From an uncultured Acidimicrobiaceae bacterium (GTDB taxonomy: Bacteria; Actinomycetota; Acidimicrobiia; Acidimicrobiales; Aldehydirespiratoraceae), in NCBI GenBank assembly GCA_913041415.1, contig CAJWHS010000002.1, positions 17,994 through 81,993 on the forward strand: 64,000 nt of DNA. Reading direction: 5' to 3'. The position numbers were made by a program, and so were the translations under genes. The notes below the pieces were generated by a model. That model saw only the letters and a list, made by a program, of their open reading frames with translations. It made no database searches and had not been told where the DNA came from. Positions 19,650 through 34,290 of the stretch are shown here, one piece after another; positions within the stretch are counted from its first letter, which is position 1; each line of letters opens with the position of its first letter.

Positions 19650-20231
19650 TCAGAGCGTCAGGTACGCAATAATTCGGGCGCGCATCTCGTCGAGCGATGG
19701 TGCGGCTGCGCCCTCCACTTTGGCCTGCTCGTCCCACCGACGCAGCGAAACAGCGGCGTCGAGGTGAGGCAACGCCTCAAAGGCGATGACCTCGTCGTCG
19801 GACATCGGTCCACCCTGGAGGGTTAGCGTGTGGACCGACGCCGACGACAGTTCGTCGTGGTACGACGGCTCCACTGCGCACAGATAGCGCTTTGCGGACA
19901 CGTGAAGCTGCACCGGCATGGTGACGGCCTCGTCGAACCAATTTGCGAGGAATCGGGCGCCGACATTCTCATGATGGAAGTCGGCACGAACCTCCCCATC
20001 GTCGTCTCGTTCGTTTACCAAGAGATGGCCGATGTCGTGGAGGAAGGCAGCGAGCACGGTGGCCTCCCCGGCACCTTCCTCAATCGCGCATCCAGCGCAT
20101 TGTGTTGCATGCTCAATCTGCGTGACGACCTCGCTGTACTTCTCGTCACCGCGCTGTTCGAACAGCCCGATCAACGCATCGGTAATCTCTGCGGGCTGCG
20201 CAAGTTCTCGCCATACCGGCATCGTGGCCAT
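19650..20231 (-). CDS. phnZ: HD-domain diiron oxygenase, PhnZ-like (2-amino-1-hydroxyethylphosphonate C-P cleavage)
   Basis: Start MATMPVW at 20231 shares 1 nt with the phnE stop (TGATG). VTQIEHATQCA..FLHDIGH..HVSAKRYL..LQGGPM pattern. Confidence 0.75.
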   Translation of the reverse strand: MATMPVWRELAQPAEITDALIGLFEQRGDEKYSEVVTQIEHATQCAGCAIEEGAGEATVLAAFLHDIGHLLVNERDDDGEVRADFHHENVGARFLANWFDEAVTMPVQLHVSAKRYLCAVEPSYHDELSSASVHTLTLQGGPMSDDEVIAFEALPHLDAAVSLRRWDEQAKVEGAAAPSLDEMRARIIAYLTL

Positions 20232-21931
20232 CAGATCACCTGCTTTCGGACCCAAGCCGAGAGGATTTCGATAGCGTAAACCAACACAAAGATACAAATC
20301 AGCAGGCCACCAACGAGTTCGAATTGGAAGAGACGGGTTCCCTGCACAAGCGGGAAGCCAATGCCACCCGCTCCGACGATCCCGAGAACCGTCGACGCTC
20401 GAAGTGACACATCCAGAACGTACAACGAGTGGCCAATGATCGCCGGCATCGCCTGGGGAAGTACCGACGTGAATGTCTCCTGCAGACCCGAGGCACCGGT
20501 CGCGCGGACGCCATCACGAGGCCCCTCCTTGATTTCCTCAATCGAGTCAGCGAACAACTTCGTGGAGAAGCCGTAGAGCCCGATGGCCAGAGCCAAAACA
20601 CCCGGCTGCGGACCGAGGCCCAGGGCAGCGACGAAGATCACCGCAACAATCAGGTCGGGCAGCGCACGGACGCCAAGTATGAACGAGCGGGCTGCGTTGT
20701 AGACCCAGCGGGCCGGCGCGACATTGCGAGCCGCCAGCATTGCAGTCGGGATGGCGAAGACCAGCGAGAGACCAGTCGCCGCAAAACCCATCTGGATGGT
20801 TTCAACGAGGAGCTCTCCCCAGCGGTCCTCCCACCAATCCATGTTCCTCGGGATCAGGTTGTTGAAGATCTCGGGGATCTGCGGAAACCCCTGGATCATC
20901 TCGATGAATGACAGATCGGGGACAGTGAAAGCCAGGATCAACATGGCCAGGCAGGAACTCCCAAAGATCCACATGACGATGCGGTCGCGGTTCCAGGGCG
21001 GGCGGAGCGCCTCTCGGTCGAACGGGAGCTCAGCACTCGCCCCATCAGCGGGACGGAAGTCCTCCGCCTCGACCGTGTGGCCGAGACCGAGGGTGGCGAG
21101 CACGCTCTTCTTCTTGGGTCCATCGTCGTGGCCGAGGATGACCGCCCGGACCCTGCTCGAGATGATCTCGACAATGGCGATCAAGACGATGATCACGAGG
21201 GTGACACCGAGCAACTGCTGATAGTCGAGGCTGCCCTGGTGGGCTCGGATCTGCAGGCCGATCCCGCCAGCCCCCACGAGGCCCAGCAGCGTCGAAGCAC
21301 GGAAGTTGATATCGAGCCGGTAAAGCGAGATGGCGATGAAGGAAGGGATGACCTGAGGGAGGATGCCCGTGGTGATCTCCTGGAGTCGACCGGCACCACT
21401 GGCGACCACGCCTTCGCGCGGCCCGGTATCAATCTGCTCGATCGAGTCGGAGAACAACTTGCCGAGCATGCCGATCGAGTGGAGCCCGAGAGCGAGCACG
21501 CCTGGGAGCACACCGATCGAGTACACCCGAACGAAAATCAGGGCAAGGATCAGCTCCGGCAGGGCACGGGTCACCACGATGAACGCACGGGCCGCGCCAC
21601 GGACGAAGCGGTTCTTGACGACGTTGTTCGCCGAGAGAAAAGCGATCGGGACCGCAAGGAAGACGCCGAGTGCGGTGCCGGCGAACGCCATCAGAAAGGT
21701 GTCGAGCGCCGCCTCCCACACGAGCCGCGGCTCGTCGATGCGAGGCGCCCACATCCGGTCGAGCAGGTTGAAGAGGTCCTGCCGCTCGGTCCAGAAAGTC
21801 AGCGGATTCACCCCGATGTCCCACATGCTGTAGAGACATCCGACGAAGAAGGCGACAAAGGTCGCAGTGAGGAGACTGCGTCGCCGCGAAACCGGCGGCC
21901 TGACTTGTTGCTTGGAGTCGGAAGTGACCAT
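20231..21931 (-). CDS. phnE: Phosphonate ABC transporter permease; two fused PhnE modules
   Basis: 566 aa. The EAxxxxGA-type permease module occurs twice (REGVVASGAGRLQE and RDGVRATGASGLQE). Confidence 0.85.
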   Translation of the reverse strand: MVTSDSKQQVRPPVSRRRSLLTATFVAFFVGCLYSMWDIGVNPLTFWTERQDLFNLLDRMWAPRIDEPRLVWEAALDTFLMAFAGTALGVFLAVPIAFLSANNVVKNRFVRGAARAFIVVTRALPELILALIFVRVYSIGVLPGVLALGLHSIGMLGKLFSDSIEQIDTGPREGVVASGAGRLQEITTGILPQVIPSFIAISLYRLDINFRASTLLGLVGAGGIGLQIRAHQGSLDYQQLLGVTLVIIVLIAIVEIISSRVRAVILGHDDGPKKKSVLATLGLGHTVEAEDFRPADGASAELPFDREALRPPWNRDRIVMWIFGSSCLAMLILAFTVPDLSFIEMIQGFPQIPEIFNNLIPRNMDWWEDRWGELLVETIQMGFAATGLSLVFAIPTAMLAARNVAPARWVYNAARSFILGVRALPDLIVAVIFVAALGLGPQPGVLALAIGLYGFSTKLFADSIEEIKEGPRDGVRATGASGLQETFTSVLPQAMPAIIGHSLYVLDVSLRASTVLGIVGAGGIGFPLVQGTRLFQFELVGGLLICIFVLVYAIEILSAWVRKQVI

Positions 21932-21978
21932 CTCGGAGACGACCTTGGCCTAGGTGGTGGAATCGGAATCGAGGAGCG

Positions 21979-22833
21979 TCATGAGAGGTCAGTCACCGAC
22001 GTGCCGTACTCCGAGATCTTGCGACCCTCGGGATCAAGCCGTCGGTAGACATCCATCACTCGCTCTTGCGTGAGGTCATCATCGACCGGGCTGTCGAGCA
22101 CGATCTTGCCGTCTTGGAGCCCGATGAGCCGGCTGGCCCACCCCATGGCGAGGTCGACCTGATGCAGGCTGCAGACAACGGTGATCTGGTCTTCGATACA
22201 GGCACGGAACAACAAGTCCATGACCTGACCAGAGATCTCCGGATCAAGCGAGGCAACCGGCTCGTCGGCAAGGACGATCTTGGGCTTCTGCATCAACATG
22301 CGGGCGATCGCAACGCGCTGTTGCTGGCCGCCCGACAGGGTGTCGGTGCGCTGAAAGGCACGATCGCCAAGCCCCACCCGTTCCAGCTGGGCGAGGGCCT
22401 CCTCGCGGAAGCGTTTCGGGTACGAGAGGACGCCGAAGCGAGGTCCTCGCAGCCGACCAAGTGCGCCGGAGAGCACGTTCTCCAGGCACGACACGCGACC
22501 GACGATGTTGAACTGCTGAAAGACGAAACCGACCTCGGTGCGCAGCGCCCGAAGCTTTGCGCCCTTGAGTTGATCGACGCGTCCGCCGAGCACGGTGACC
22601 GACCCCGCCGTCGGCTCGTGAAGCCCGTTCAGGTGCCTGAGCAGAGTCGACTTGCCAGATCCCGACAGGCCAATGATGACGCAAAGTTGGCCCTCGGGCA
22701 CCGAGAACGTGACGTCGTCGAGGGCGCGGACCCGCCCGTTGTCGAAGGTCTTGACGAGGCCCTCGACTTCCACCACCGGGGGAAGATCTGCATGGTTCGG
22801 AGTGGGGCGGATTGCGCCCTCGACGTCAGTCAT
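21979..22833 (-). CDS. phnC: Phosphonate ABC transporter ATP-binding protein
   Basis: GLSGSGKSTLLRHLNGL, FQQFNIVGRVSCLENVL, LSGGQQQRVAIARML. Confidence 0.85.
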   Translation of the reverse strand: MTDVEGAIRPTPNHADLPPVVEVEGLVKTFDNGRVRALDDVTFSVPEGQLCVIIGLSGSGKSTLLRHLNGLHEPTAGSVTVLGGRVDQLKGAKLRALRTEVGFVFQQFNIVGRVSCLENVLSGALGRLRGPRFGVLSYPKRFREEALAQLERVGLGDRAFQRTDTLSGGQQQRVAIARMLMQKPKIVLADEPVASLDPEISGQVMDLLFRACIEDQITVVCSLHQVDLAMGWASRLIGLQDGKIVLDSPVDDDLTQERVMDVYRRLDPEGRKISEYGTSVTDLS

Positions 22834-22847
22834 GGTTTCTCAATTCC

Positions 22848-23810
22848 TCAATCTGCCTGGCACTTCGCCGAGCCGGTGAGCTCGCAGAGCTCACGGATCG
22901 GGTCGAAGTAAGCGTCGTCACCAGCGAGGTAGCCCCAGAACGGGCCGTCCGAGAGCGGGCAGTCGTCGACGCTGTCGCAGTAGCCGTTCTCGACCGCCCA
23001 GTCGACGTTCACCTTCGTGGTCACGATCTCGATGATCTCTTCCTTCATGTCTTCCGGAAGCCAGTTGCCCACAGCAAGCGGCGGAGCTGCGATCGGAGCC
23101 GACTTGTCGATGATGCGGATCTCGGCGACGTCGCCGTTTACCGTCTCGTCCTCAACCTCGTCGATAACGCCGGCGATATCACCTGACTCGATGAGCTGCT
23201 CCGTGACCATGGTGTCGTAGGCGAAACCGGCGTCACAATCGCCGTTGGCGACGGCGAGAGCCGAAGCATCGTGACCACCAGCGAAGGTGGCTTCGATGTC
23301 GGTCGAGGTCTCCGAAGGATCAATGCCAGCAGCAAGGAGCAGGGCGCTGGGGAAAAGGAAGCCGGAGGTAGATCCTGGGTCCACGAAGCAGACCTTCTTC
23401 CCGCGAAGGTCGTCGACCGTGTTGACGTCGCTTCCCACCTGGGTGATGAGATAGGAGCGGTAGTCGCCGTAACCGTCAGGCGTATCGGAGGCCCAGAGTC
23501 CAGCGACGTCAAGATCGGCACCGGCGCCGGTGGCGATCACGTAGGAGAAGCCGCCGAACGAGGCAATGTCGACCTCTTCGGCAATGGTGCCTTCGATCAC
23601 GCCGGCGTAGTCAGCAGCCTGAATGAACTCGATCTCAACACCGAGTTCGTCAGCGATGATCTGCGGAGTGACATAGTCCGAGATCTCCTGAGCGTTCTCG
23701 GCTGGAACAGCGCCGAAGGTCAGGGTGACGGTTTCGTCATCGTCGCCACACCCAGCAGCGAACATCGTCAGGGCGGTCAGCGTGGCGAGTAGCCAGCGGA
23801 GCTTCTTCAT
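22848..23810 (-). CDS. phnD: Phosphonate ABC transporter substrate-binding lipoprotein
   Basis: Start at ATG 23810 after GGAGGG. MKKLRWLLATLTALTMFAAGC lipobox. PhnD-like body. Confidence 0.8.
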   Translation of the reverse strand: MKKLRWLLATLTALTMFAAGCGDDDETVTLTFGAVPAENAQEISDYVTPQIIADELGVEIEFIQAADYAGVIEGTIAEEVDIASFGGFSYVIATGAGADLDVAGLWASDTPDGYGDYRSYLITQVGSDVNTVDDLRGKKVCFVDPGSTSGFLFPSALLLAAGIDPSETSTDIEATFAGGHDASALAVANGDCDAGFAYDTMVTEQLIESGDIAGVIDEVEDETVNGDVAEIRIIDKSAPIAAPPLAVGNWLPEDMKEEIIEIVTTKVNVDWAVENGYCDSVDDCPLSDGPFWGYLAGDDAYFDPIRELCELTGSAKCQAD

Positions 23811-24023
23811 TTGGGTTCCCTCCGAGGGAAAGTTCAGGGCTGCTCGCGCATGACGAACGACCCATAGTTGGATGAATTCGAGCATTGCTACAGAACGAGA
23901 GCAACGTTTCGGTTAACGCAGATGAGATGTTTGATGGCCTGGTTCGAACGCCTTGGAGCAGCGTGCTGGGTCGGTCGCTAGAGAGCGATCGAACGATCGC
24001 ACGGCGTTCATCTGGGAGTAACC

Positions 24024-24842
24024 ATGCATTCGGATCCAGTCGGCCAGAATGGTGGCGTGGAGCTCACAGCGAAGCAGAGAGCGGACTGGGATCGTTCCGG
24101 ATGGCTCGTGGCCAGAGACGCGTTCACTGAGGCGGAGTTCACCGCAATCGACGTCGCCTCCCGCGAGGTGGAGTCGTGGGGTGACGAACGCGGGCTTGCC
24201 CATTTCGAACAGACTCGCCTCGGCGCTGTGATCGCACGCTCGGAGGACTTCGAGCCACACCACGGGTTCCTGCGCTCGCTTCTGCGCTCGAGCATCATCA
24301 CCGACACCGTCGATGCACTCTTCGGCGAGCCGGGTGTGCTGTTCAAAGAAAAGATCAATTACAAGCACGCAGGCGGTGGAGGCTTCGCACCCCACCAAGA
24401 TGTGACGGCCTATCCGCAAATCTCGACGTGCATCTCGGTCATGATCCCTCTCGACCCAGCTGACACGACCAACGGCTGCTTGTGGTTCACCACGAGGACC
24501 CCAGGGACGACGATCCAAAACGTGCGCGGCGCAATCCCCGAGTCGTGGTGCAGCGAACAAGAGTGGGTGCCAGTCGAGGTAAGTCCCGGCGACATCGTCT
24601 TCTTTGACGGGCTTGCACCGCATCGAAGCGACACGAACAGAAGTCAGCGATCGCGGAGGGCAATGTACGTGACCTACAACCCGCGTTCCGGCGGCGACTT
24701 TCGGAACGCCTACTACGAGGACAAACGACGCCGGCTTGCCGAGGCGAGTGTCGGCGAGAGCGGCAACGTACTCATTTCGGTGAACGACGACTTCCTCGGC
24801 CAACCGGTCGATGCGTCGGCGTCAGGCGACATCACCGCCTGA
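24024..24842 (+). CDS. phnY: PhyH-family Fe(II)/2-oxoglutarate dioxygenase, PhnY-like (2-aminoethylphosphonate hydroxylase)
   Basis: 272 aa. FAPHQDVTAY (HxD) and LAPHRSDTN motifs. Divergent from phnDCE-phnZ. Confidence 0.7.
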   Translation: MHSDPVGQNGGVELTAKQRADWDRSGWLVARDAFTEAEFTAIDVASREVESWGDERGLAHFEQTRLGAVIARSEDFEPHHGFLRSLLRSSIITDTVDALFGEPGVLFKEKINYKHAGGGGFAPHQDVTAYPQISTCISVMIPLDPADTTNGCLWFTTRTPGTTIQNVRGAIPESWCSEQEWVPVEVSPGDIVFFDGLAPHRSDTNRSQRSRRAMYVTYNPRSGGDFRNAYYEDKRRRLAEASVGESGNVLISVNDDFLGQPVDASASGDITA

Positions 24843-25341
24843 TCCAGTTTCCGTCAGGGAGCCGCTCCCAAAACCCGACACACCACGTCGCGGGAAGGGA
24901 CGGGTCGATGATTTCGTGCGCAAGGGCCTCATACGGCTGGAGGTCAGCAACGCCGTAGGCGAGGCTCACGTGGAGCCAGTCCTTTGGGCGGAGCGCGTCC
25001 TCGCCGTGCTCCGGTCGATCGGTGGTCGTGACCGTCTCGATGATCTCGAGCAGCTGCCTCGAACGAAGTTCGAGGCCAACCCAACCATCGCGTGCGCCCA
25101 AACGCTCGACAGCGACATCGTCGGGCTCACCGAATGCGTCAACGGCCGAACCGAGCGCTGCCAAGACCTCACCGACCCGATGGTCAGCGCGTCGAAAGAA
25201 CCCAGTGAGGGTGCAGTGCACTGGGTAGGACTGGGCGATGGTCGGGCCAAGCCGAGCGGTGGCTTCGTCGAAGTAGCGCTGGGCTGCGTCGGCAAGTGGC
25301 CCCATCGGCCAAGCGTAAAGAATCAATTCCCGTTCGCTCAC
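24832..25341 (-). CDS. 2H phosphoesterase superfamily protein (LigT / cyclic phosphodiesterase fold)
   Basis: GTG start 25341 overlaps the upstream stop as GTGA. Two H-x-[TS]-x motifs: VHCTLTGFF and LHVSLAYG. The track ORF carries an Arg-rich false extension to 25509. Confidence 0.65.
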   Translation of the reverse strand: MSERELILYAWPMGPLADAAQRYFDEATARLGPTIAQSYPVHCTLTGFFRRADHRVGEVLAALGSAVDAFGEPDDVAVERLGARDGWVGLELRSRQLLEIIETVTTTDRPEHGEDALRPKDWLHVSLAYGVADLQPYEALAHEIIDPSLPATWCVGFWERLPDGNWIRR

Positions 25342-26453
25342 GGGCCAACGAATGCCGTCTCGCCGCCGACGACAGCACGTCGCACGCGGGGTGGTTGCCG
25401 GTCTGCAGGCGGCTCGACCACAACGATGTCGGCAAGCTGCCCGGAGCCCAGACGGCCGCGATCGGTCAAGCCGGCGACGTCTGCGGGGACGGTCGAGACG
25501 GCCCGCCACGCCGCTCCCATCGATGCGATGCCGTGCTCGACGAGGCAGAACGGGGCAGCCAGCAGCGACGGATAGTGGTAGTCGGAGCAGAGCAGGTCCC
25601 CGGCGCCAGACGCCCAGGCCTCACGTACCGACAGGTTGCCAAGATGCGATGTTCCGCGAACGAGGTTTGGGGCACCGAGCAACACGGCGATGTCGTGCTC
25701 TCGATATCGCTTCGCAAGTTCGATGGATGTCGGGAACTCGGCGATCGCAACTCCAAGGTCAAGATCGCGCTGGAGGTCTTCGATCGTGTCAGCGTCGTGG
25801 CTTGCTGTTACGCATGACGCGATGCTCGCCACCTCGGCAAGGCGTAGCTCCTGACCGACGCCCTGCTCCCGCTGGCTGAGCGCATCGGTGTGGAGTTGTT
25901 CGAACCGCTCTGCCGATACACCGGTCCGGCCGATCTGGGTCGCCGAGATCGCATCATCGGTGTGGTCGTTGAAGGACAGCATCGTCACGACACCTTCAGC
26001 GATCCACGCCTCGAGCTGCTCAAGATCGTCGGTATTGGCCCGCTCGTGGCGGACGTGAATCTCGAGTCGTGGTGCGGAGGTGGCTCGCTGCGCGCACGCG
26101 TCGACAAGCGCAGCCAAGCTGGCGCGGCTGCGTAAACCTGGCTCCCAACTGTCGGTAGCCGACAGGTAGGCCGTCGTGATACCTGCCCCAAGCAACTGCA
26201 CGTCGTTCGCCATCAACGCAAGGCCGTAGTCAATCGCAACGCCGTCGCGCGGCATGAGGGCACGCTCGAAGGCGTCGCCGTGGATATCAATGATTCCGGG
26301 AAGCACAAGTGCGCTTCCCACATCCTCCGCCGGTACCGCCTCGATGTCGCCGTCCGTGAGCACGCGCGTGATCACATCCCCGTCCCACTCCACGACCCCG
26401 CGAACGACGTCGTCCGCTCCGTCGATCAACAGGTGTCCTCGCAACGCTGGCAT
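25338..26453 (-). CDS. Second, divergent PhnM-like amidohydrolase
   Basis: LPGIIDIHGDAFE..LLGAPNLVRGTSHLGN..LCSDYHYPSLL. Parallels PhnM at 32300..33475 (LPGLVDSHSDGLE..VMGAPNALRGHSHSGN..LASDYMPSAML). Confidence 0.75.
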   Translation of the reverse strand: MPALRGHLLIDGADDVVRGVVEWDGDVITRVLTDGDIEAVPAEDVGSALVLPGIIDIHGDAFERALMPRDGVAIDYGLALMANDVQLLGAGITTAYLSATDSWEPGLRSRASLAALVDACAQRATSAPRLEIHVRHERANTDDLEQLEAWIAEGVVTMLSFNDHTDDAISATQIGRTGVSAERFEQLHTDALSQREQGVGQELRLAEVASIASCVTASHDADTIEDLQRDLDLGVAIAEFPTSIELAKRYREHDIAVLLGAPNLVRGTSHLGNLSVREAWASGAGDLLCSDYHYPSLLAAPFCLVEHGIASMGAAWRAVSTVPADVAGLTDRGRLGSGQLADIVVVEPPADRQPPRVRRAVVGGETAFVGP

Positions 26454-26516: not shown

Positions 26517-26532
26517 AGTTGTCATGACAACT
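26517..26532. promoter_or_regulatory. 16-bp perfect palindrome AGTTGTCATGACAACT; candidate GntR/PhnF operator
   Basis: Lies in the divergent intergenic region between the phnM2-2H operon and phnF. The core TTGTCATGACAA fits the GntR-family GT-n-AC type. It is embedded in the 8-bp arms GAAGCAGT / ACTGCTTC. Confidence 0.45.
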
Positions 26533-26553: not shown

Positions 26554-26763
26554 ATGCGCAGCGATGCCGAGCTCCTCGAGGACTGGGAGCACAATGGCTT
26601 TGTCCGGCTCACCAGCAAGCTCGACGCCTCGGCCCTGCCCGATCTTCGCGAAGTTGTCGGCGACATTGCCTCTGGCAACTACCGCCATCGTGGCAACAGC
26701 CCGGTGCTCGTACATCACGAGCAGACACCGGACTACCTCAAACGATCGGCCGATACACCGTGA
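26554..26763 (+). pseudogene. Truncated PhyH/PhnY-like N-terminal remnant (69 codons)
   Basis: SDAELLEDWEHNGFVRL..VLVHHEQTPDYLKRSAD parallels PhnY AKQRADWDRSGWLVAR..LAHFEQTRLGAVIARSED. It stops 5 nt before the phnF ATG. Confidence 0.4.
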
Positions 26764-26768
26764 GCCAC

Positions 26769-27503
26769 ATGCCCGAGATCACGTATCACGAAGTCGCCGA
26801 CGAACTCGCCGAAGAGATCGAGTCTCTGGAGCCGGGCGATCGGCTGCCATCGGAAAACGAACTCGTTCGGCGCTACGGCGTGAGCCGAATCTCTGCGCGG
26901 GCGGCGCTGCAAGAGTTGGAACGACGCATGCTGGTGCGCCGAACCCGCGGATCAGGCACACGCGTTGCCCTTCGGCTCCCGTATCCGCTGCGAGCTGGCA
27001 CCACACCAAGTTGGGGGCAGCTTGTTCGCGAAGCAGGCCACACGCCGACCTACGCGGTCGACAGCATCCGCTCTGAGCGCGCCAACGCTGCGATTGGTCG
27101 GGCGCTGATGATTCCCCGCGGCCGGATGATCACCCGGGTTCAACGGCGAATGTTCGTCGACGGTGAGGTCGCGGCCTGCCAAAGCCACTGGCTTCCGAGC
27201 GACGAGGTCCCGAACATCTCGGACCACCAGGATCCTTCCGGGTCGCTCTCCCTGACCCTCACCGGCCATTTTGGCTTCGAACTTGACCGGGCCTGGTCTC
27301 GGGCGAAGCTCGCTGTGCCGACGGTGGAGATTGCTGCTGATCTTGAGTTGACCGGTCGACCTCCGATTTGGCGGGTTGAGTCGCTCAACCACTGCGAGCG
27401 TCGCCGTCGACCCGTCGAGTATGCGATTGCGTGGAATCGCGCCGACGTCTTCGACGTGTTGCTCGAACTCGGACCATCCGACGGACCAACGGAGATGCGA
27501 TGA
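26769..27503 (+). CDS. phnF: GntR/HutC-family regulator PhnF
   Basis: MPEITYHEVADELAEEIESLEPGDRLPSENELVRRYGVSRISARAALQELE (wHTH) plus a UTRA-like C-terminus. ATGA overlap with phnG. Confidence 0.8.
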   Translation: MPEITYHEVADELAEEIESLEPGDRLPSENELVRRYGVSRISARAALQELERRMLVRRTRGSGTRVALRLPYPLRAGTTPSWGQLVREAGHTPTYAVDSIRSERANAAIGRALMIPRGRMITRVQRRMFVDGEVAACQSHWLPSDEVPNISDHQDPSGSLSLTLTGHFGFELDRAWSRAKLAVPTVEIAADLELTGRPPIWRVESLNHCERRRRPVEYAIAWNRADVFDVLLELGPSDGPTEMR

Positions 27504-27946
27504 CAGAAATCCCGAGAGCTACAAGCGATGCCTCATTTCGGGCGTCGATGCTCGCCCAGGCCGACGCCGCCTCGCTCGCCGTGGTCGCTGACGAATGTCT
27601 GGCTGCAGCACCGACCCCCCGGGTGCACTTCGGCCCTGACGTCGGCACGATCATGCTGACGATGCGGGAGCCAGTAGAGGCAACCCGGTTTCACCTCGGC
27701 GAGGTGCTCGTCACCCGGTGCCAGGTTCAGCATCGCGAGACGGTTGCCTGGGCGATGCGCATGGGCGACGACCGAGCGTCAACCCTTGCCGCTGCGGTAT
27801 GCGATGCCGAGGTCGCCGCCGCTGGGCCGGCGGCGGCGTCTGTCGAGCGTCTCGTCGCCGAAACCCGTCGCCACCTTGACGCCGAGCGCGCCGAGGAATG
27901 GCGCGAACTTGAGCCCACGATCGTCGCCTTCGAGGAGATGGACTGA
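27500..27946 (+). CDS. phnG: C-P lyase core complex subunit PhnG
   Basis: MTEIPRAT..RFHLGEVLVTRCQV. Position and overlaps are typical. Confidence 0.75.
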   Translation: MTEIPRATSDASFRASMLAQADAASLAVVADECLAAAPTPRVHFGPDVGTIMLTMREPVEATRFHLGEVLVTRCQVQHRETVAWAMRMGDDRASTLAAAVCDAEVAAAGPAAASVERLVAETRRHLDAERAEEWRELEPTIVAFEEMD

Positions 27947-28518
27947 TGGCCGTTCCTGTTCTGACTGGCACACCGAGTCAAGCGGCGTTCGACGCCATCT
28001 TGCGCTCGCTTTCTGAACCCGGCTCGATTCGGCAGTTGCCACCGAGCCCGTCTCCGGAGGTTCCGGCCTATGCGATGGTCGCTCTGGCTCTCGGCGACAT
28101 CGATCTCGGTGTGTGCGTCGACGACGATCCGATGCACCCGGTGGCTCTCATGCTGCGAGCCGCTACCGGCATGACGATCACGGGTCGAGACAACGCACAG
28201 TTCGTTGTATGCAGCAACGAGGCGGTGCCGGTGGGCAATCTGCTCACCGGCACGGCCCTTGCCCCCGAAGACGCTGCCCGCCTCACGATCGCAGTCGACG
28301 ATCTCGACGCCGATGGCGACGGTGCGGTTGTCCTTCGTGGTCCGGGGGTACCCGGGGAGCGGCGACTCTGCGTTCGCGGCCTTGACCGGAAGACGCTGCT
28401 CAGCCTCGGCCGAACGTCCGGCACCTTTCCTGCTGGCATCGACACCTGGCTGGTCACCGCAGAAGGGCGGATCGCGGCGATTCCCCGAAGCACCACGGTC
28501 ACACAAGGAGAACACTGA
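27946..28518 (+). CDS. phnH: C-P lyase subunit PhnH
   Basis: 190 aa. QAAFDAILRSLSEPG. 1-nt TGATG overlaps on both sides. Confidence 0.75.
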   Translation: MAVPVLTGTPSQAAFDAILRSLSEPGSIRQLPPSPSPEVPAYAMVALALGDIDLGVCVDDDPMHPVALMLRAATGMTITGRDNAQFVVCSNEAVPVGNLLTGTALAPEDAARLTIAVDDLDADGDGAVVLRGPGVPGERRLCVRGLDRKTLLSLGRTSGTFPAGIDTWLVTAEGRIAAIPRSTTVTQGEH

Positions 28519-29720
28519 TGGGTTACGTCGCAGCAAAGGGCGGGTTTGATGCCATCCAGGCAGCTGAGACGCTTGTCCGACGTCGTCGGATCGAGGGCCG
28601 CAGCTCCTGGCTTGAGCTCGATCAGATCGTCGATCGGCTCCGCTACTCGGTCGACCGAGTCATGGGCGAAGGTGGCCTTTGGGACGAGCAACTCTCCGCT
28701 CGGGCCTTCCGCCAGGCCGAGGGAGACGTCATTGAGGCAGCTCACCTCATCCGGGCCCACCGCTCAACACTTCCGCGCTTTGGGTACGCCCGTGTTGTGG
28801 ACGCCGACGAGATCGATGTGCTCCGGCGCATCGTGCCTGCGTTCCGTGAACCTCCGGGCCCCCAACTCCTCGGTCGCACCCTTGACTACACCGGCCGACT
28901 CCTTGATCAGACGCCGGAGGACGAGGGTCGTCGCCAGGCCGCCGAAGCTGCCGCCAACCGTCGTGAGCGCGTCGTCTCGACTCAAGTGAGCGCTGATGAG
29001 CCGACGGTGGACCAGCGGGTTCCAGGCCGGCTAATCGACGTACTGCGTAACCTCGACGCGCTCGTTGACCGCCGCCGAGACGATGACCCTGAACCGGTCG
29101 ACATCAGCCGTGTCGCCGCCCGTCCGGGTGCACCCCGGTCAGCTCGGCTCTCGACCATGGCGCGGGCCGAAACCGGGGCGCTCGTGCAACTCTGGTATCG
29201 AAACATTCTCGGACCGGACCGCAACCTCCACGAGGTGACCCTCGGCGAGGTTCGCCACGGTCGTCTTCCTATCGAGGTCCAAAACCCGCTCACGGGAGAA
29301 ACCGTCCCCATTGGTTCGGTTCGAGTCACCGAGGTTGAGGCCATCGAGGATCTCGACGGTGTCGAGGAGGATCGCACTCGTTTCGACGTCGGCTACGGCA
29401 TCTGCCTCGGCCACAACGAACGCAAGGCGATTGCCATGGCCAACCTCGATGTCGCCGTCGATAGGGCGGCGGGCGACGGTCCGCTTGAGCAGTCGGTTCT
29501 GATGACGACCGACGGGCTCGACGCCTCCGGCTTCCTTGAACACCTCAAGCTTCCGCATTACGTCACGTTCCGCTCGATGATGGAGCGCAAGACGGCGATG
29601 CGCGAGGCCGCTGGCACCAAGCGGCAGGAACGCCTCGCTCAGGGCCGTTCGGACTGCGAGGTCACCGACGTATCTGGCGACGCTGGTGCTCCTGTCGAAC
29701 GAGAGGACGTGCTGCGATGA
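28518..29720 (+). CDS. phnI: C-P lyase subunit PhnI (ribosyl-phosphonate triphosphate synthase)
   Basis: MGYVAAKGGFDAIQAAE N-terminus, like E. coli MYVAVKGGEKAI. 400 aa. Confidence 0.85.
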   Translation: MGYVAAKGGFDAIQAAETLVRRRRIEGRSSWLELDQIVDRLRYSVDRVMGEGGLWDEQLSARAFRQAEGDVIEAAHLIRAHRSTLPRFGYARVVDADEIDVLRRIVPAFREPPGPQLLGRTLDYTGRLLDQTPEDEGRRQAAEAAANRRERVVSTQVSADEPTVDQRVPGRLIDVLRNLDALVDRRRDDDPEPVDISRVAARPGAPRSARLSTMARAETGALVQLWYRNILGPDRNLHEVTLGEVRHGRLPIEVQNPLTGETVPIGSVRVTEVEAIEDLDGVEEDRTRFDVGYGICLGHNERKAIAMANLDVAVDRAAGDGPLEQSVLMTTDGLDASGFLEHLKLPHYVTFRSMMERKTAMREAAGTKRQERLAQGRSDCEVTDVSGDAGAPVEREDVLR

Positions 29721-30655
29721 CCCTTGCCGACGTTCTCGCCACGACCGGCCCGGCACCAGCGTCTGAGGTCGCCGTCGAACTGACGCCCATCCTTGACGAG
29801 TCGGCAAAGCGTGAGATTCGTCGAGCGGTACTCACCGCCATTGCTGTGCCGGGCTACCAGGTGCCGTTCGGTTCGCGAGAGATGCCGGTCGCCCGTGGAT
29901 GGGGTTCCGGTGGCCTCCAAATCTCCCTTGCGGTCGTCGGGGACGACGATGTCGTAAAGGTCTATGACCAAGGTGAGGACGGTGGCGTGAACGCAGCCAA
30001 CCTTCGTCGACTGATCCGTCGTTCCGAGGGCGTCAAGACCACAACCGACGCCCGTGAGGCTTCGGTGATCCAAACCCGCCACCGGGTTCCCGAGGATGAA
30101 CTGATCGCGGACCAGATCCTTGTCCTTCAAGTGCCTGTGCCCGAACCCCTCCGCGGGATTGAGCGCGACATGAACGAACTGCGTCGAATGCACGCCGAGG
30201 CCGACTACGCCCGGATGTGGGTGAGTCTCTACGAAGACATCGTCCGCAATGGTGTCATCACCCGAACAACCGGCTACCCGTGCCTCGTCGACGGGCGCTA
30301 CGTGATCGCAACCACCCCCATCCCGCGATGGGACGTTCCGCCGCTCCATCAAGCGAAGTTCCTCTCGCTGTTCGGCGCTGGTCGCGAAAAGCGGATCTAC
30401 GCGATCCCGCCGTACACGGATGTGGAGCCACTGACCTTCGATGACGTCCCCTTCGAGGTCGAGGAGGTCAGCGAGCCGTGCCGCTGCGGCCTGATCTGTC
30501 CCGGTGACGAACAGGGGGCTTATCTGGTCGAGCTCCCGGCACAGGACGGCACCTCGCAGTGGGTGTGCAGCGACACCGACTGGTGCACCCGGCATCGCGT
30601 GGCCAACGGCGTGCTCGGCAGCGAAGCCCTCGACGACGCCGACGAACTCTGGTGA
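29717..30655 (+). CDS. phnJ: C-P lyase catalytic radical-SAM subunit PhnJ
   Basis: AVPGYQVPFGSREMPVARGWGSGGLQ, and the Cys cluster CRCGLIC..C..C near the C-terminus. Confidence 0.9.
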   Translation: MTLADVLATTGPAPASEVAVELTPILDESAKREIRRAVLTAIAVPGYQVPFGSREMPVARGWGSGGLQISLAVVGDDDVVKVYDQGEDGGVNAANLRRLIRRSEGVKTTTDAREASVIQTRHRVPEDELIADQILVLQVPVPEPLRGIERDMNELRRMHAEADYARMWVSLYEDIVRNGVITRTTGYPCLVDGRYVIATTPIPRWDVPPLHQAKFLSLFGAGREKRIYAIPPYTDVEPLTFDDVPFEVEEVSEPCRCGLICPGDEQGAYLVELPAQDGTSQWVCSDTDWCTRHRVANGVLGSEALDDADELW

Positions 30656-30665
30656 AGGGAAGGCT

Positions 30666-31505
30666 GTGAGCGATTGGATGCTCCGAGTCGAAGGACTCGG
30701 CAAGATTTACGGACCGGGCGGCCCGGCTGACGTTGAGGGCACCGGCCCCGAGTTCGGTCGATCGGTCAGCCCATCGACCGGCGCAGTCGTCGGCTGCTGG
30801 GACGTCGGCTTCGAGGTGGCGGCGGGCGAAGCGCTCGGCGTGATCGGTGAGTCCGGATCTGGCAAGTCGACCGTTATGCGCTGTATCGCTGGCGACCAGA
30901 CCGCGACGACGGGTTCGGCTCACATCCGAACCGTCGACGGTGGTGAGGCCGACGTCATGGGGTTCGACCCGTCCCGCCGCCGATCGCTGCGGGTCGACGA
31001 GCTCGCAGTGGTCTATCAGGATCCCTCGGAGGGGCTTGATCTCCACGTGTCAGCGGGCGGCAACGTCGCCGATCGCCTCACCGCCGCTGGATGGCGCAAC
31101 TTCGGCGACATCCGCCGACGGGCCGCAGAGCTTCTGGCCCGGACCGAGGTCCCACTCGATCGTATGGATGATCCTGTCTCGACCTTCTCAGGAGGTATGC
31201 GCCAGCGGGTCCAGCTCGCCAAGGCGCTCGCCAACCAGCCGTCGGTGCTTTTGCTCGACGAGCCGACTACTGGCCTCGACGCCTCGGTCGCGGCCGGAGT
31301 GCTCGACCTCATTCGCGATCTGCTCCAGGAGACTGGCGTCGCCGCGGTGGTTGTGAGCCACGACTTCGCCGTCATCGAGATGTTGACCCGCCGCTCACTC
31401 GTGATGCATCACAGCCGCGTCGTCGAGGCCGGCCTGACTGACCAGTTGCTCGAAGATCCGCAACATCCGTATAGCCAGCGCCTCGTCGGCGCTGCCCGGG
31501 GGTGA
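30666..31505 (+). CDS. phnK: C-P lyase system ATP-binding protein PhnK
   Basis: GTG start after GAAGGGA (alternative ATG at 30678). GESGSGKSTVMRCIAGD, LSGGMRQRVQLAKAL. Confidence 0.8.
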   Translation: MSDWMLRVEGLGKIYGPGGPADVEGTGPEFGRSVSPSTGAVVGCWDVGFEVAAGEALGVIGESGSGKSTVMRCIAGDQTATTGSAHIRTVDGGEADVMGFDPSRRRSLRVDELAVVYQDPSEGLDLHVSAGGNVADRLTAAGWRNFGDIRRRAAELLARTEVPLDRMDDPVSTFSGGMRQRVQLAKALANQPSVLLLDEPTTGLDASVAAGVLDLIRDLLQETGVAAVVVSHDFAVIEMLTRRSLVMHHSRVVEAGLTDQLLEDPQHPYSQRLVGAARG

Positions 31506-32266
31506 CAATGCCGTTTCAGAACCTTTTGACCGTTCGAGGGCTCACGAAGTCCTTCACGCTCCACGCCGTTGACGGGCGTGTTGTCCGGGGCCTTTGCGGG
31601 GTCGACCTTGACATCGTGGAGGGCGAACACGTTGCGCTTGCCGGCCGATCTGGGGCCGGTAAGTCCAGTTTGTTGAAGTGCGTACACCGCACCTACGTCG
31701 CCGACGATGGGGTCGTCGTGTATCGCCGGGCCAACGGAGACGCCGTCGACCTGTTGTCGATGAGTGACAGCGACGTTGCTGATCTGCGCTCCCAGGAGAT
31801 CGGCTATGTCTCGCAGTTTCTCCGCGCTGAACCCCGACGGGGGGTGCTCGACGTTGTCGCTGGTGCCGCTCGACGAATGGGAGTCGACGAGGGCGAGGCC
31901 CGAGACCGAGCCGCCGACGTACTCCGCCGGGTCAACATTGATGAGTCTCTCTGGTCGACGTATCCGACGTTGCTTTCCGGCGGGGAGAAACAGCGGGTCA
32001 ATCTTGCGGCCGGCATCGTTGAGGCGCCGCGTCTGTTGTTGCTCGACGAGCCCGTATCTGCGCTCGACCCGGCGAACCGGGTCGCTGTGCTCGACATCCT
32101 CTCCGACCTCACGTCGCGTGGAGCCACAGTGCTCAGTGTGTTCCACGACATCGACGCCATGCGCGTCCTCGCCGACCGGGTGGTCGTGATGGAGGACGGC
32201 GTCGTCGTCGATCACGGCGAGGCCAATCAGGTCCTCGATCGCAACCTTGAGCGCGAGCTTGTCTGA
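31502..32266 (+). CDS. phnL: C-P lyase system ATP-binding protein PhnL
   Basis: GTGA overlap with phnK. LTKSFTLHAVDG..GRSGAGKSSLLKC..LSGGEKQRVNLA. Confidence 0.8.
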   Translation: MTMPFQNLLTVRGLTKSFTLHAVDGRVVRGLCGVDLDIVEGEHVALAGRSGAGKSSLLKCVHRTYVADDGVVVYRRANGDAVDLLSMSDSDVADLRSQEIGYVSQFLRAEPRRGVLDVVAGAARRMGVDEGEARDRAADVLRRVNIDESLWSTYPTLLSGGEKQRVNLAAGIVEAPRLLLLDEPVSALDPANRVAVLDILSDLTSRGATVLSVFHDIDAMRVLADRVVVMEDGVVVDHGEANQVLDRNLERELV

Positions 32267-32299
32267 CCCCCCCGATCACTCCTCCCGAACGAGATCACC

Positions 32300-33475
32300 A
32301 TGACCACTGCCATCACCGACGTTCGCGTCGTTCTACCCACTGCCATCACCGACGACGCGACGGTCATTATCGACGAAGGTCGTATCGCCCAAATCACGAC
32401 CGGCAGGGCGCCCGCCGGTGCCCGCTCCGGCCACGGTGCGCTGCTGTTGCCCGGGCTCGTCGATAGCCACAGTGATGGCCTCGAGAAGGAGATTGCTCCT
32501 CGTCAGACCGTCCGCTTCCCGCTCGACTATGGCCTCCGCTCGTTTGAGGGTCGGGTCAGAGCGGCCGGTATCACCACGATCTGCCATGGCGTTGGTTATC
32601 AGGAGAAAGCCAAAGCGGGTCGCTCCGTCGAGCGTGCTCGAGAGACGGTTGCTGCGATCGCCGCCCGCAGCCGCGAGGTTGACACCGGCGTCGACCATCG
32701 CGTGCTGTACCGGTTCGAGGCTCGCGACCCCGAGGCGCTCACGCCGCTCCTGGAGGACCTCGGCTCGTCCCCCAAGAACGACGTCGCTCCGCTCTTGAGC
32801 TTCGAGGACCACACACCTGGGCAGGGTCAGTTCCGAGATATCGCCCAGTACGAAGCCGCCGTCGATCCGACCACGCTTCCTGAAGGCGAGACCGTGCAGT
32901 CCTATGTCGCCCGCCTCAAGGCTGAGGGTGATGCCATGCTCGCCAGCCGCCAAGAAAACCGGGCCCGGCTCGCGCCACTTGCCCGCCGGGGAGATCTCCG
33001 CTTGCTGGCCCATGACCTCGAGACCATCGATGACGTGGCCGAGGCAGTTGATGCCGGTGCGACGATCGCCGAATTCCCGCTTTCCATGGACGTGGCCAAG
33101 CACGCGAAAGCCGCTGGCATGACGACGGTCATGGGGGCGCCCAATGCACTTCGTGGACACTCACACTCGGGCAACACGTCGGCTCGGGACCTTGTCGTTG
33201 CCGGTCTCTGCGACGTGCTTGCGTCGGACTACATGCCGTCGGCGATGCTTGCCGCTGCGTTCGCCATGGCTGCCGCCAACGTCTGCACCTTGCCCGAAGC
33301 GGTCGCGCTGATCACCTCAGGGCCGGCGACGATGATCGGTGAGGTCGATCGCGGCCGTATTGAAGTCGGTGCGCTTGCCGATCTGATCCTGGTCGATGAT
33401 TCTGGCGCATGGCCGGTCGTGCTCGATGTTCGTCGAGCGGCTGATCATCCCGTTCGCGGCGACATTGGCGCATGA
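32300..33475 (+). CDS. phnM: PhnM (alpha-D-ribose 1-methylphosphonate 5-triphosphate diphosphatase)
   Basis: LPGLVDSHSDGLEKE..SFEDHTPGQGQF..MGAPNALRGHSHSGN..SDYMPSAML. Confidence 0.85.
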   Translation: MTTAITDVRVVLPTAITDDATVIIDEGRIAQITTGRAPAGARSGHGALLLPGLVDSHSDGLEKEIAPRQTVRFPLDYGLRSFEGRVRAAGITTICHGVGYQEKAKAGRSVERARETVAAIAARSREVDTGVDHRVLYRFEARDPEALTPLLEDLGSSPKNDVAPLLSFEDHTPGQGQFRDIAQYEAAVDPTTLPEGETVQSYVARLKAEGDAMLASRQENRARLAPLARRGDLRLLAHDLETIDDVAEAVDAGATIAEFPLSMDVAKHAKAAGMTTVMGAPNALRGHSHSGNTSARDLVVAGLCDVLASDYMPSAMLAAAFAMAAANVCTLPEAVALITSGPATMIGEVDRGRIEVGALADLILVDDSGAWPVVLDVRRAADHPVRGDIGA

Positions 33476-34290
33476 ACCGGCCTCATCCAGCGCTCACCGC
33501 CTCCGCTGAGGCTGCGTCGATGGCGTGGGCCGATGCCGTGGGCCGCTTCAGTCGCGACGAACTTCTCGAGTTCGTCGCAGACGGCGCTGATGGAACGCCA
33601 TCGTCTCGAATCGATGTGATGGTCGAGGCTGAAATCCTTCGCGCTGTCGAGCCCTTCGGCATTGATGTTGTGAGCGAAGAGATTGGGCACGTTGACAATG
33701 GATCTAGCGTGGCCATGGTCGTGGATCCTGTTGACGGAACCGGCAATGCGACCGCAGGCATTCCAATTTCGGCCTTTACGGCGGCGATCGCTGTGGATGG
33801 CCGTTTCACCGAAGGCCTGACTCATTGGTTTGCTGATGGTCGCCGTTGGTGGGCTCACGTCGATCAGCCGATTGCGCCATCGACGTCGGGTCGCACAGAG
33901 TTAGACGGAGCGCTGCTCTCGATGATTCGACCGAAGGGCAGTGGGGACGGGTTCCTCGCAGTAGCAAGGCGGGCATCTCGCATTCGCGTGCTCGGCTCAT
34001 CGTCGATCGAGGCCGCCCTTGTTGGTGACGGTGTTCTTGACGCATTTGTCGACGCTGGCAGTCGTACCCATCGTCTTGTTGATCTTGCGGCGGCGACGGT
34101 GATCGTCGAACGGGCCGGTGGCGTTGTTCTCGACGTGCATGGCGAGCCCATTGTCTTCACGACCGAGATCGACACCCGCTGGTCAGGTGTCGTGGCGGCC
34201 ACCCCGGAGCTCGGTCGAGCGATCGTTGATGAGGTTCGGTCCACGCTGAAGAACGGCGGAGAACGCGTGGTCGATGAACCTCTGAGCTGA
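33472..34290 (+). CDS. Inositol monophosphatase / FBPase-family phosphatase
   Basis: ATGA overlap with phnM. VSEE..VVDPVDGTGN and DLAAATVIVERAGG motifs. Confidence 0.7.
   Translation: MNRPHPALTASAEAASMAWADAVGRFSRDELLEFVADGADGTPSSRIDVMVEAEILRAVEPFGIDVVSEEIGHVDNGSSVAMVVDPVDGTGNATAGIPISAFTAAIAVDGRFTEGLTHWFADGRRWWAHVDQPIAPSTSGRTELDGALLSMIRPKGSGDGFLAVARRASRIRVLGSSSIEAALVGDGVLDAFVDAGSRTHRLVDLAAATVIVERAGGVVLDVHGEPIVFTTEIDTRWSGVVAATPELGRAIVDEVRSTLKNGGERVVDEPLS

Follow-up and report, generated by a model that had tools for sequence, protein, structure and literature searches.

We analysed a 64,000-nucleotide (nt) stretch of DNA from an uncultured Acidimicrobiaceae bacterium (GenBank assembly GCA_913041415.1, contig CAJWHS010000002.1, positions 17,994-81,993 of the forward strand), hereafter the window, whose own positions serve as coordinates throughout; it carries a carbon-phosphorus (C-P) lyase operon that closes with a gene of the inositol monophosphatase/fructose-1,6-bisphosphatase (IMPase/FBPase) family. 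The host is a metagenome-assembled genome of the Actinomycetota (2.68 Mb, completeness 96.85%), and close homologs are labelled Acidimicrobiia. On the + strand, positions 26769-34290 hold phnF, G, H, I, J, K, L and M, followed by the IMPase-family open reading frame (ORF), in that order. The regulator phnF (GntR/UTRA; 26769-27503) has TIGR02325 as its best match, under the cut-off; phnG (27500-27946) matches TIGR03293 (E 5.5e-23) and phnH (27946-28518) exceeds the cut-off of TIGR03292. No NCBIfam model matches phnI (28518-29720), whose identity comes from its HLKLPH motif and from PF05861 on homologs at the same position. The C-P lyase gene phnJ (29717-30655) was assigned by PF06007 (382 bits) and by alignment to 4XB6 chain D, phnK (30666-31505, GTG start at 30666) and phnL (31502-32266, starting at GTG 31502 or ATG 31508) by their best matches, TIGR02323 and TIGR02324, and phnM (32300-33475) by NF011990 and NF011984, both above cut-off. 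The lyase core phnGHIJKLM is complete and clustered, and the 272-amino-acid (aa) phosphatase gene occupies 33472-34290. A preliminary description of this DNA had every junction from phnF to phnM as an overlap of 1 or 4 nt, which holds for F/G (-4), G/H (-1), H/I (-1) and I/J (-4), and also for phnM and the phosphatase (-4); J and K are separated by 10 nt and L and M by 33 nt, while K/L is -4 or +2 depending on which phnL start is used. The same description had phnM running by ATGA into the IMPase-family ORF, and indeed this stop/start overlap is present and the DPVDGT and GG motifs are intact.

The operon had also been called minimal, a term that does not survive inspection of the divergent arm on the opposite side of phnF (19650-26453). 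Read from its far end, this arm contains phnZ, encoding an HD-domain phosphonate oxygenase (19650-20231, - strand; TIGR03276, 218.6 bits against a cut-off of 214.6), whose start overlaps the stop of a fused phnE-phnE permease gene (20231-21931, - strand; two stretches of PF00528). Next come the ATP-binding cassette ATPase gene phnC (21979-22833, - strand; PF00005), which sits between phnD and phnE, the gene of the phosphonate-binding protein PhnD (22848-23810, - strand; PF12974, E 4e-47, and TIGR01098 above cut-off) and a phnY*-like 2-oxoglutarate dioxygenase gene (24024-24842, + strand; NF052437 methylphosphonate hydroxylase, E 3.5e-57, under cut-off). The arm ends with a gene for a 169-aa 2H phosphoesterase (24832-25341, - strand) and a second phnM, phnM2 (25338-26453, - strand; NF011987, 351 bits against a cut-off of 253), which is 31% identical to phnM. 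Our best explanation of the locus is an island for phosphonate use that offers two routes, one by C-P lyase and one by PhnY*/PhnZ, and that PhnF probably controls.

The operon was described at the outset as being without phnN, phnO and phnP, and this extends beyond the operon: a profile search of the genome, with positive E. coli controls, returned no PhnP or PhnN above cut-off. The E. coli-type ending by PhnP and PhnN is therefore missing at both operon and genome level. The PHP domains of the genome are confined to two long ORFs of DnaE size, and Prs is encoded. Similarly, the four genomes of Streptomyces, Rhodococcus, Nocardia and Saccharopolyspora that carry the phosphatase have no PhnP or PhnN above cut-off. 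How phosphonate phosphorus reaches the inorganic phosphate (Pi) pool in organisms without these two enzymes is an open question (PMC10574752, PMC3463581).

The protein encoded by the last gene matches PF00459 and has the fold and the metal ligands (EE, DPxDGT and the last Asp) of the IMPase/FBPase (FIG) superfamily. Across 40 homologs the ligands E69, D85, D88 and D204 are invariant, as are R153, R172, D194, H200 and R201, and the structure model (predicted local distance difference test, pLDDT, 93.5) reaches a template modelling (TM) score of 0.80 to MJ0109. By sequence, the closest solved relatives are the archaeal FBPase/IMPases MJ0109, PH1897 and AF2372 (PDB, E 2e-35), and the best profile match is that of the archaeal class IV enzymes, PRK12676, whose curated threshold is missed (141.7 bits against 264). 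The window enzyme shares with these archaeal proteins the fold, the metal ligands, a short loop and an Asp at the Glu213 position, but it is only 23-25% identical to them, is bacterial and tied to phn genes, and has its own invariant R153 and H200. Its relatives form a discrete subfamily, with full-length members scoring 313-352 bits on the subfamily profile and the next full-length protein 167. IMPase-fold enzymes that accept bisphosphates are marked by a small residue (Asp, His, Ser or Thr) at the position of human Glu213 and by a short beta9-alpha6 loop (PMC2080633). Both marks are present here: the invariant Asp194 occupies that position, where the SuhB of the same genome has Glu, and the loop, which is MJ0109-like, falls short of its counterpart in SuhB by about 6 residues.

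The preliminary description had allowed that the gene might be a conserved housekeeping one of the SuhB or HisN type. When this was checked, five other PF00459 genes were found elsewhere in the genome, among them SuhB-, HisN- and CysQ-type genes by motif, which lie on other contigs. The phosphatase gene was found to travel with phn genes; of 15 genomes examined in the genus 4 have it, and of 401 in the class 2, both with phnJ. (The phylum and class searches scored 5-6 candidates per genome, and absence in genomes G641, G603 and G295 was rechecked with all candidates.) The motif 5 of HisN (R-x-x-G-D with aromatics; PMC5516325) is absent from the phosphatase, which reads RIRVLGSSSIEAA; a true HisN motif is seen in L002. 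The SuhB motif 5 (RR-x-GSAAL; PMC5516325) is also absent, and L001 has the near-match RRFGGAAL. A chance neighbour of the SuhB, HisN, CysQ or ImpA kind could still draw on the RxR in motif 5 of the phosphatase, a pattern called typical of ImpA (PMC5516325) and present in MJ0109 as well, and on the one small clade of homologs outside phn clusters. The patchy, phn-linked occurrence nevertheless argues against ImpA, for which a general occurrence in actinobacteria is expected, and, with the other-contig SuhB, HisN and CysQ genes, leads us to reject a simple housekeeping identity; that such an enzyme lies beside the operon by accident is highly improbable.

To describe the linkage, 93 phosphatase loci were collapsed at 90% identity into 62 groups, 55 of them informative. 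C-P lyase genes accompany the phosphatase in 41 of the 55, and in 35 it stands directly after phnM; the other informative groups comprise five with phn transport genes, five with a PhnZ-like gene only and four without any phn gene. Homologs 51-57% identical to the window protein close phn operons of the same gene order in Streptomyces, Rhodococcus, Nocardia and Saccharopolyspora, and one member (L144:2254-3597), right after phnL-phnM, is fused to a PhnO-like GNAT acetyltransferase. The phosphatase is an accessory gene of C-P lyase operons. Most of its carriers share one PhnJ clade (100/100), with L074 outside, and it was not found in nine genomes with the other PhnJ type, among which four actinobacterial operons end in a PHP gene. 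Operons picked through PhnJ, and the class search, spoke against the idea that all operons of this PhnJ clade carry the phosphatase, which was rejected.

The groups that lack lyase neighbours bear on another explanation, in which the enzyme belongs to the phosphate-starvation response as a phosphomonoesterase of broad range, acts on esters that PhnCDE brings in, and shares a transcript with the phn genes for regulation only. The five transport-linked groups, the five with a PhnZ-like gene only and the four without phn genes would fit this explanation, as would the action of archaeal relatives on several substrates, including fructose 1,6-bisphosphate and NADP (PMC8553519). Yet 35 of the 55 groups keep the gene directly after phnM, including cases with the transporter genes on the opposite strand or in another place, and the subfamily-specific invariant residues R153, H200 and R201 point to a defined substrate, so that we consider a broad, merely co-regulated enzyme unlikely.

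The copies with a PhnZ-like gene only form one clade (100/100) nested among lyase-linked copies. In loci L063, L064, L088, L089, L109 and L112, phosphatase and PhnZ-like HD protein make up a two-gene module with no lyase gene nearby; the HD neighbours were considered as phosphodiesterases and rejected, their profile scores being those of PhnZ-like oxygenases. The copies without phn neighbours likewise form one clade (100/100), made up of L065, L068, L073 and L078, and in L073 and L078 a malate/lactate dehydrogenase gene precedes the phosphatase. Members of a distant IMPase group, which have an N-terminal extension, are found before phnF in L142 (L142:5905-6993) and without phn neighbours in L131 (L131:7014-8111).

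The second enzyme of interest is the 2H phosphoesterase (24832-25341), which has the two HxT/S motifs and the 2H fold of its superfamily. The motifs, H42-x-T44 and H124-x-S126, are conserved in 37 homologs, and the model (pLDDT 97) matches Usb1, YjcG, LigT and the Arabidopsis ADP-ribose 1'',2''-cyclic phosphate (Appr>p) cyclic phosphodiesterase 1FSI. The product of the Appr>p enzyme is a 1''-phosphate. The gene is coupled to phnM2 by a GTGA overlap and lies about 8 kb upstream of the phosphatase gene; its homologs sit in phn clusters, including a cyanobacterial run of phnM, 2H and HD genes in which the 2H gene comes right after phnM. These features make it a candidate replacement for PhnP, a role for which 2H enzymes (RcsF) have been proposed earlier (PMC10574752). 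Like rcsF (DUF1045), it is a 2H-fold enzyme in a phnP-less operon and a proposed ring-opener (PMC10574752), but it belongs to a separate family: it has no Pfam match of any kind, hence none to PF06299 (RcsF/DUF1045), and a genome-wide PF06299 search was empty, its controls being equally empty.

The C-P lyase steps as far as the cyclic phosphate are those of E. coli (PMC10574752), carried over to this locus by homology. PhnGHI, with PhnKL, would couple the phosphonate to ATP, PhnM would yield 5-phosphoribosyl 1-phosphonate and PhnJ would convert this to 5-phosphoribosyl 1,2-cyclic phosphate. The phosphonate phosphorus is then inside the cyclic phosphate ring, so that phosphorus gain needs ring-opening followed by release of the C1 or C2 phosphate. 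We propose that ring-opening by the 2H phosphoesterase yields ribose 1,5-bisphosphate and that the IMPase-fold enzyme, as a Mg-dependent sugar-bisphosphate phosphatase, takes off the phosphonate-derived C1 phosphate, leaving Pi and ribose 5-phosphate; these two steps would replace PhnP, PhnN, a phosphoribosyltransferase and a pyrophosphatase. We put the probability of this scheme at roughly 0.55. Gene identities, linkage, the lack of phnP and phnN matches and the intact catalytic residues were established directly; the substrates of both enzymes, and which phosphate leaves, are what we infer. A phosphomonoesterase cannot stand in for PhnP, and the 2H phosphoesterase is likely the ring-opener at this locus. 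The preliminary description had proposed dephosphorylation rather than salvage to 5-phosphoribosyl 1-diphosphate (PRPP). Dephosphorylation in place of PhnN would still be the best reading, while the exclusion of salvage was too sharp, because ribose 5-phosphate is still convertible to PRPP by the genome's Prs.

Several observations weigh against the two-step scheme. IMPase-fold enzymes are promiscuous, hence the substrate cannot be read from the fold alone. Our survey of linkage was seeded from the phosphatase, related genomes in it are not independent, and four groups have no phn neighbour of any kind. When operons were instead picked by PhnJ, 5 of 10 carried the phosphatase (G006, G013, G363, L143 and a fifth known by Pfam call only); L140, L141, G641 and G603 were without it, and in L142 the gene before phnF encodes a distant GNAT-IMPase fusion instead. 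With half of these operons lacking it, and G641 having neither phosphatase nor 2H gene, the phosphatase must be dispensable or replaced by unlinked enzymes. Among 24 full-operon groups that carry the phosphatase, the locus includes the 2H gene in only 2 (3 with the window). This 2H family is absent from the four actinomycete genomes, so that ring-opening there would need unlinked 2H enzymes. The 2H gene as a constant partner of the phosphatase was thus rejected by the locus survey and the genome searches. Each of the four actinomycete genomes holds 1-4 generic unlinked 2H genes, while G000, G006 and G013 have this 2H family and no generic 2H match, a suggestive pattern in genomes that are few and related.

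The lack of a linked 2H gene in 22 of 24 full-operon groups, and of any PhnP or PHP gene among the recurrent neighbours, would also suit an IMPase-fold enzyme that takes over both ring-opening of the 1,2-cyclic phosphate and the release of Pi that follows, in place of PhnP and PhnN, as PhnPP does in Eggerthella; the invariant His200-Arg201 pair just before the last metal ligand, D204, could be read in the same direction. Against this stand the separate 2H enzyme retained at this locus and the unlinked 2H enzymes of actinomycete genomes, and we know of no diesterase with the IMPase fold. Such a single-enzyme ending is quite doubtful. We hold it equally doubtful that an actinobacterial C-P lyase lineage, part of which would use a PhnJ with a CxC iron-sulfur motif, ends the pathway by an undescribed enzyme of this kind, the first diesterase in the fold, that alone yields ribose 5-phosphate and Pi from the 1,2-cyclic phosphate.

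The accessory nature of the gene, its fusion in one case to a PhnO-like detoxifying enzyme, and the lack of a linked ring-opener in most phosphatase operons raise a further alternative, one that requires no ring-opener: the phosphatase could strip the 5-phosphate from stalled 5-phosphoribosyl phosphonate or cyclic phosphate, recovering ATP-derived phosphate and letting dead-end ribosides exit, as a clean-up and not as the last step. E. coli phnP strains do excrete 5-dephosphorylated intermediates (PMC3463581). This activity would not make phosphonate phosphorus available to the cell, nor does it explain why PhnP and PhnN are missing, and we judge it improbable.

Variation in the last C-P lyase steps is already known from RcsF and PhnPP. 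The PhnPP of Eggerthella lenta, reportedly described by Ghodge and colleagues in 2013, is said to be a PHP-family cyclic phosphate dihydrolase. The two-step scheme would resemble it in net result, from cyclic phosphate to ribose 5-phosphate and Pi, but with two unrelated folds here where a single PHP enzyme acts there. The E. coli phnC-P operon shares with the window phnCDE, phnF and phnGHIJKLM, and in PhnJ a counterpart of Gly32 and four cysteines, the last two of which align with those of E. coli; the window differs by being without phnN, phnO and phnP, by adding a second phnM and PhnY*/PhnZ, by a CxC in PhnJ and by the IMPase-fold gene in last place. In our search of the open literature, with most subscription journals outside its coverage, no publication describing phn operons with an IMPase-fold gene came up, and novelty is not proven. 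If correct, the scheme would add a new substrate to the IMPase fold. With its two small soluble enzymes, the locus opens phosphorus release without PhnP and PhnN to testing in vitro. The phosphatase is present in Acidimicrobiia from metagenomes as well as in Streptomyces, Rhodococcus, Nocardia and Saccharopolyspora, which can be cultured, and this gives it relevance to aerobic methane release and to actinobacterial phosphonate breakdown.

The C-P lyase PhnJ is marked by Gly32 and Cys241/244/266/272 (PMC9947105). In the window protein Gly46, Cys284 and Cys290 align with E. coli Gly32, Cys266 and Cys272 (4XB6 chain D), while the first Cys pair is C255-x-C257, giving CxC-x26-C-x5-C against CxxC-x21-C-x5-C in E. 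coli. The CxC spacing is found in 61 of the 120 nearest PhnJ homologs, or in 60 when the one that also has a CxxC is set aside; a spacing shared by about half of them is a natural variant and not an assembly error. We regard it as the putative cluster-binding, iron-sulfur cysteine motif of this PhnJ; an additional Cys261 is not conserved. In Rhodococcus, Nocardia and Saccharopolyspora (L033, L034, L035) a single protein of about 600 aa combines PhnJ with PhnK, and in the Streptomyces operon (L032:2184-4444) two phnI-like genes stand in tandem, the downstream one containing a long His-rich insert.

Between the two arms lies a perfect 16-bp palindrome, AGTTGTCATGACAACT (26517-26532, no strand). 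The genome has no second copy of its 12-bp core, and about 15 related loci have TTGTCnnGACAA-like sites directly upstream of phnF, phnG, phnD or phnM2, for which reasons it is likely the PhnF operator, as judged from sequence. A scan for promoters and terminators did no better than chance. A 69-codon remnant of a phnY*-like gene (26554-26763, + strand), 47% identical to the N-terminus of a PhyH ORF in L007 and L130, follows the palindrome. These two loci have an intact phnY-phnZ pair between operator and phnF, where the window has the remnant, so about 1.2 kb seems to have been deleted in the window. Elsewhere in the genome there is a second PhnZ-like gene (G000:C85:4230-4739), 42% identical. 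In 11 metagenomic loci, among them L040, L042, L054, L056 and L075, the gene of a choice-of-anchor I protein (PF22494; 570 aa) stands between phnD and phnG.

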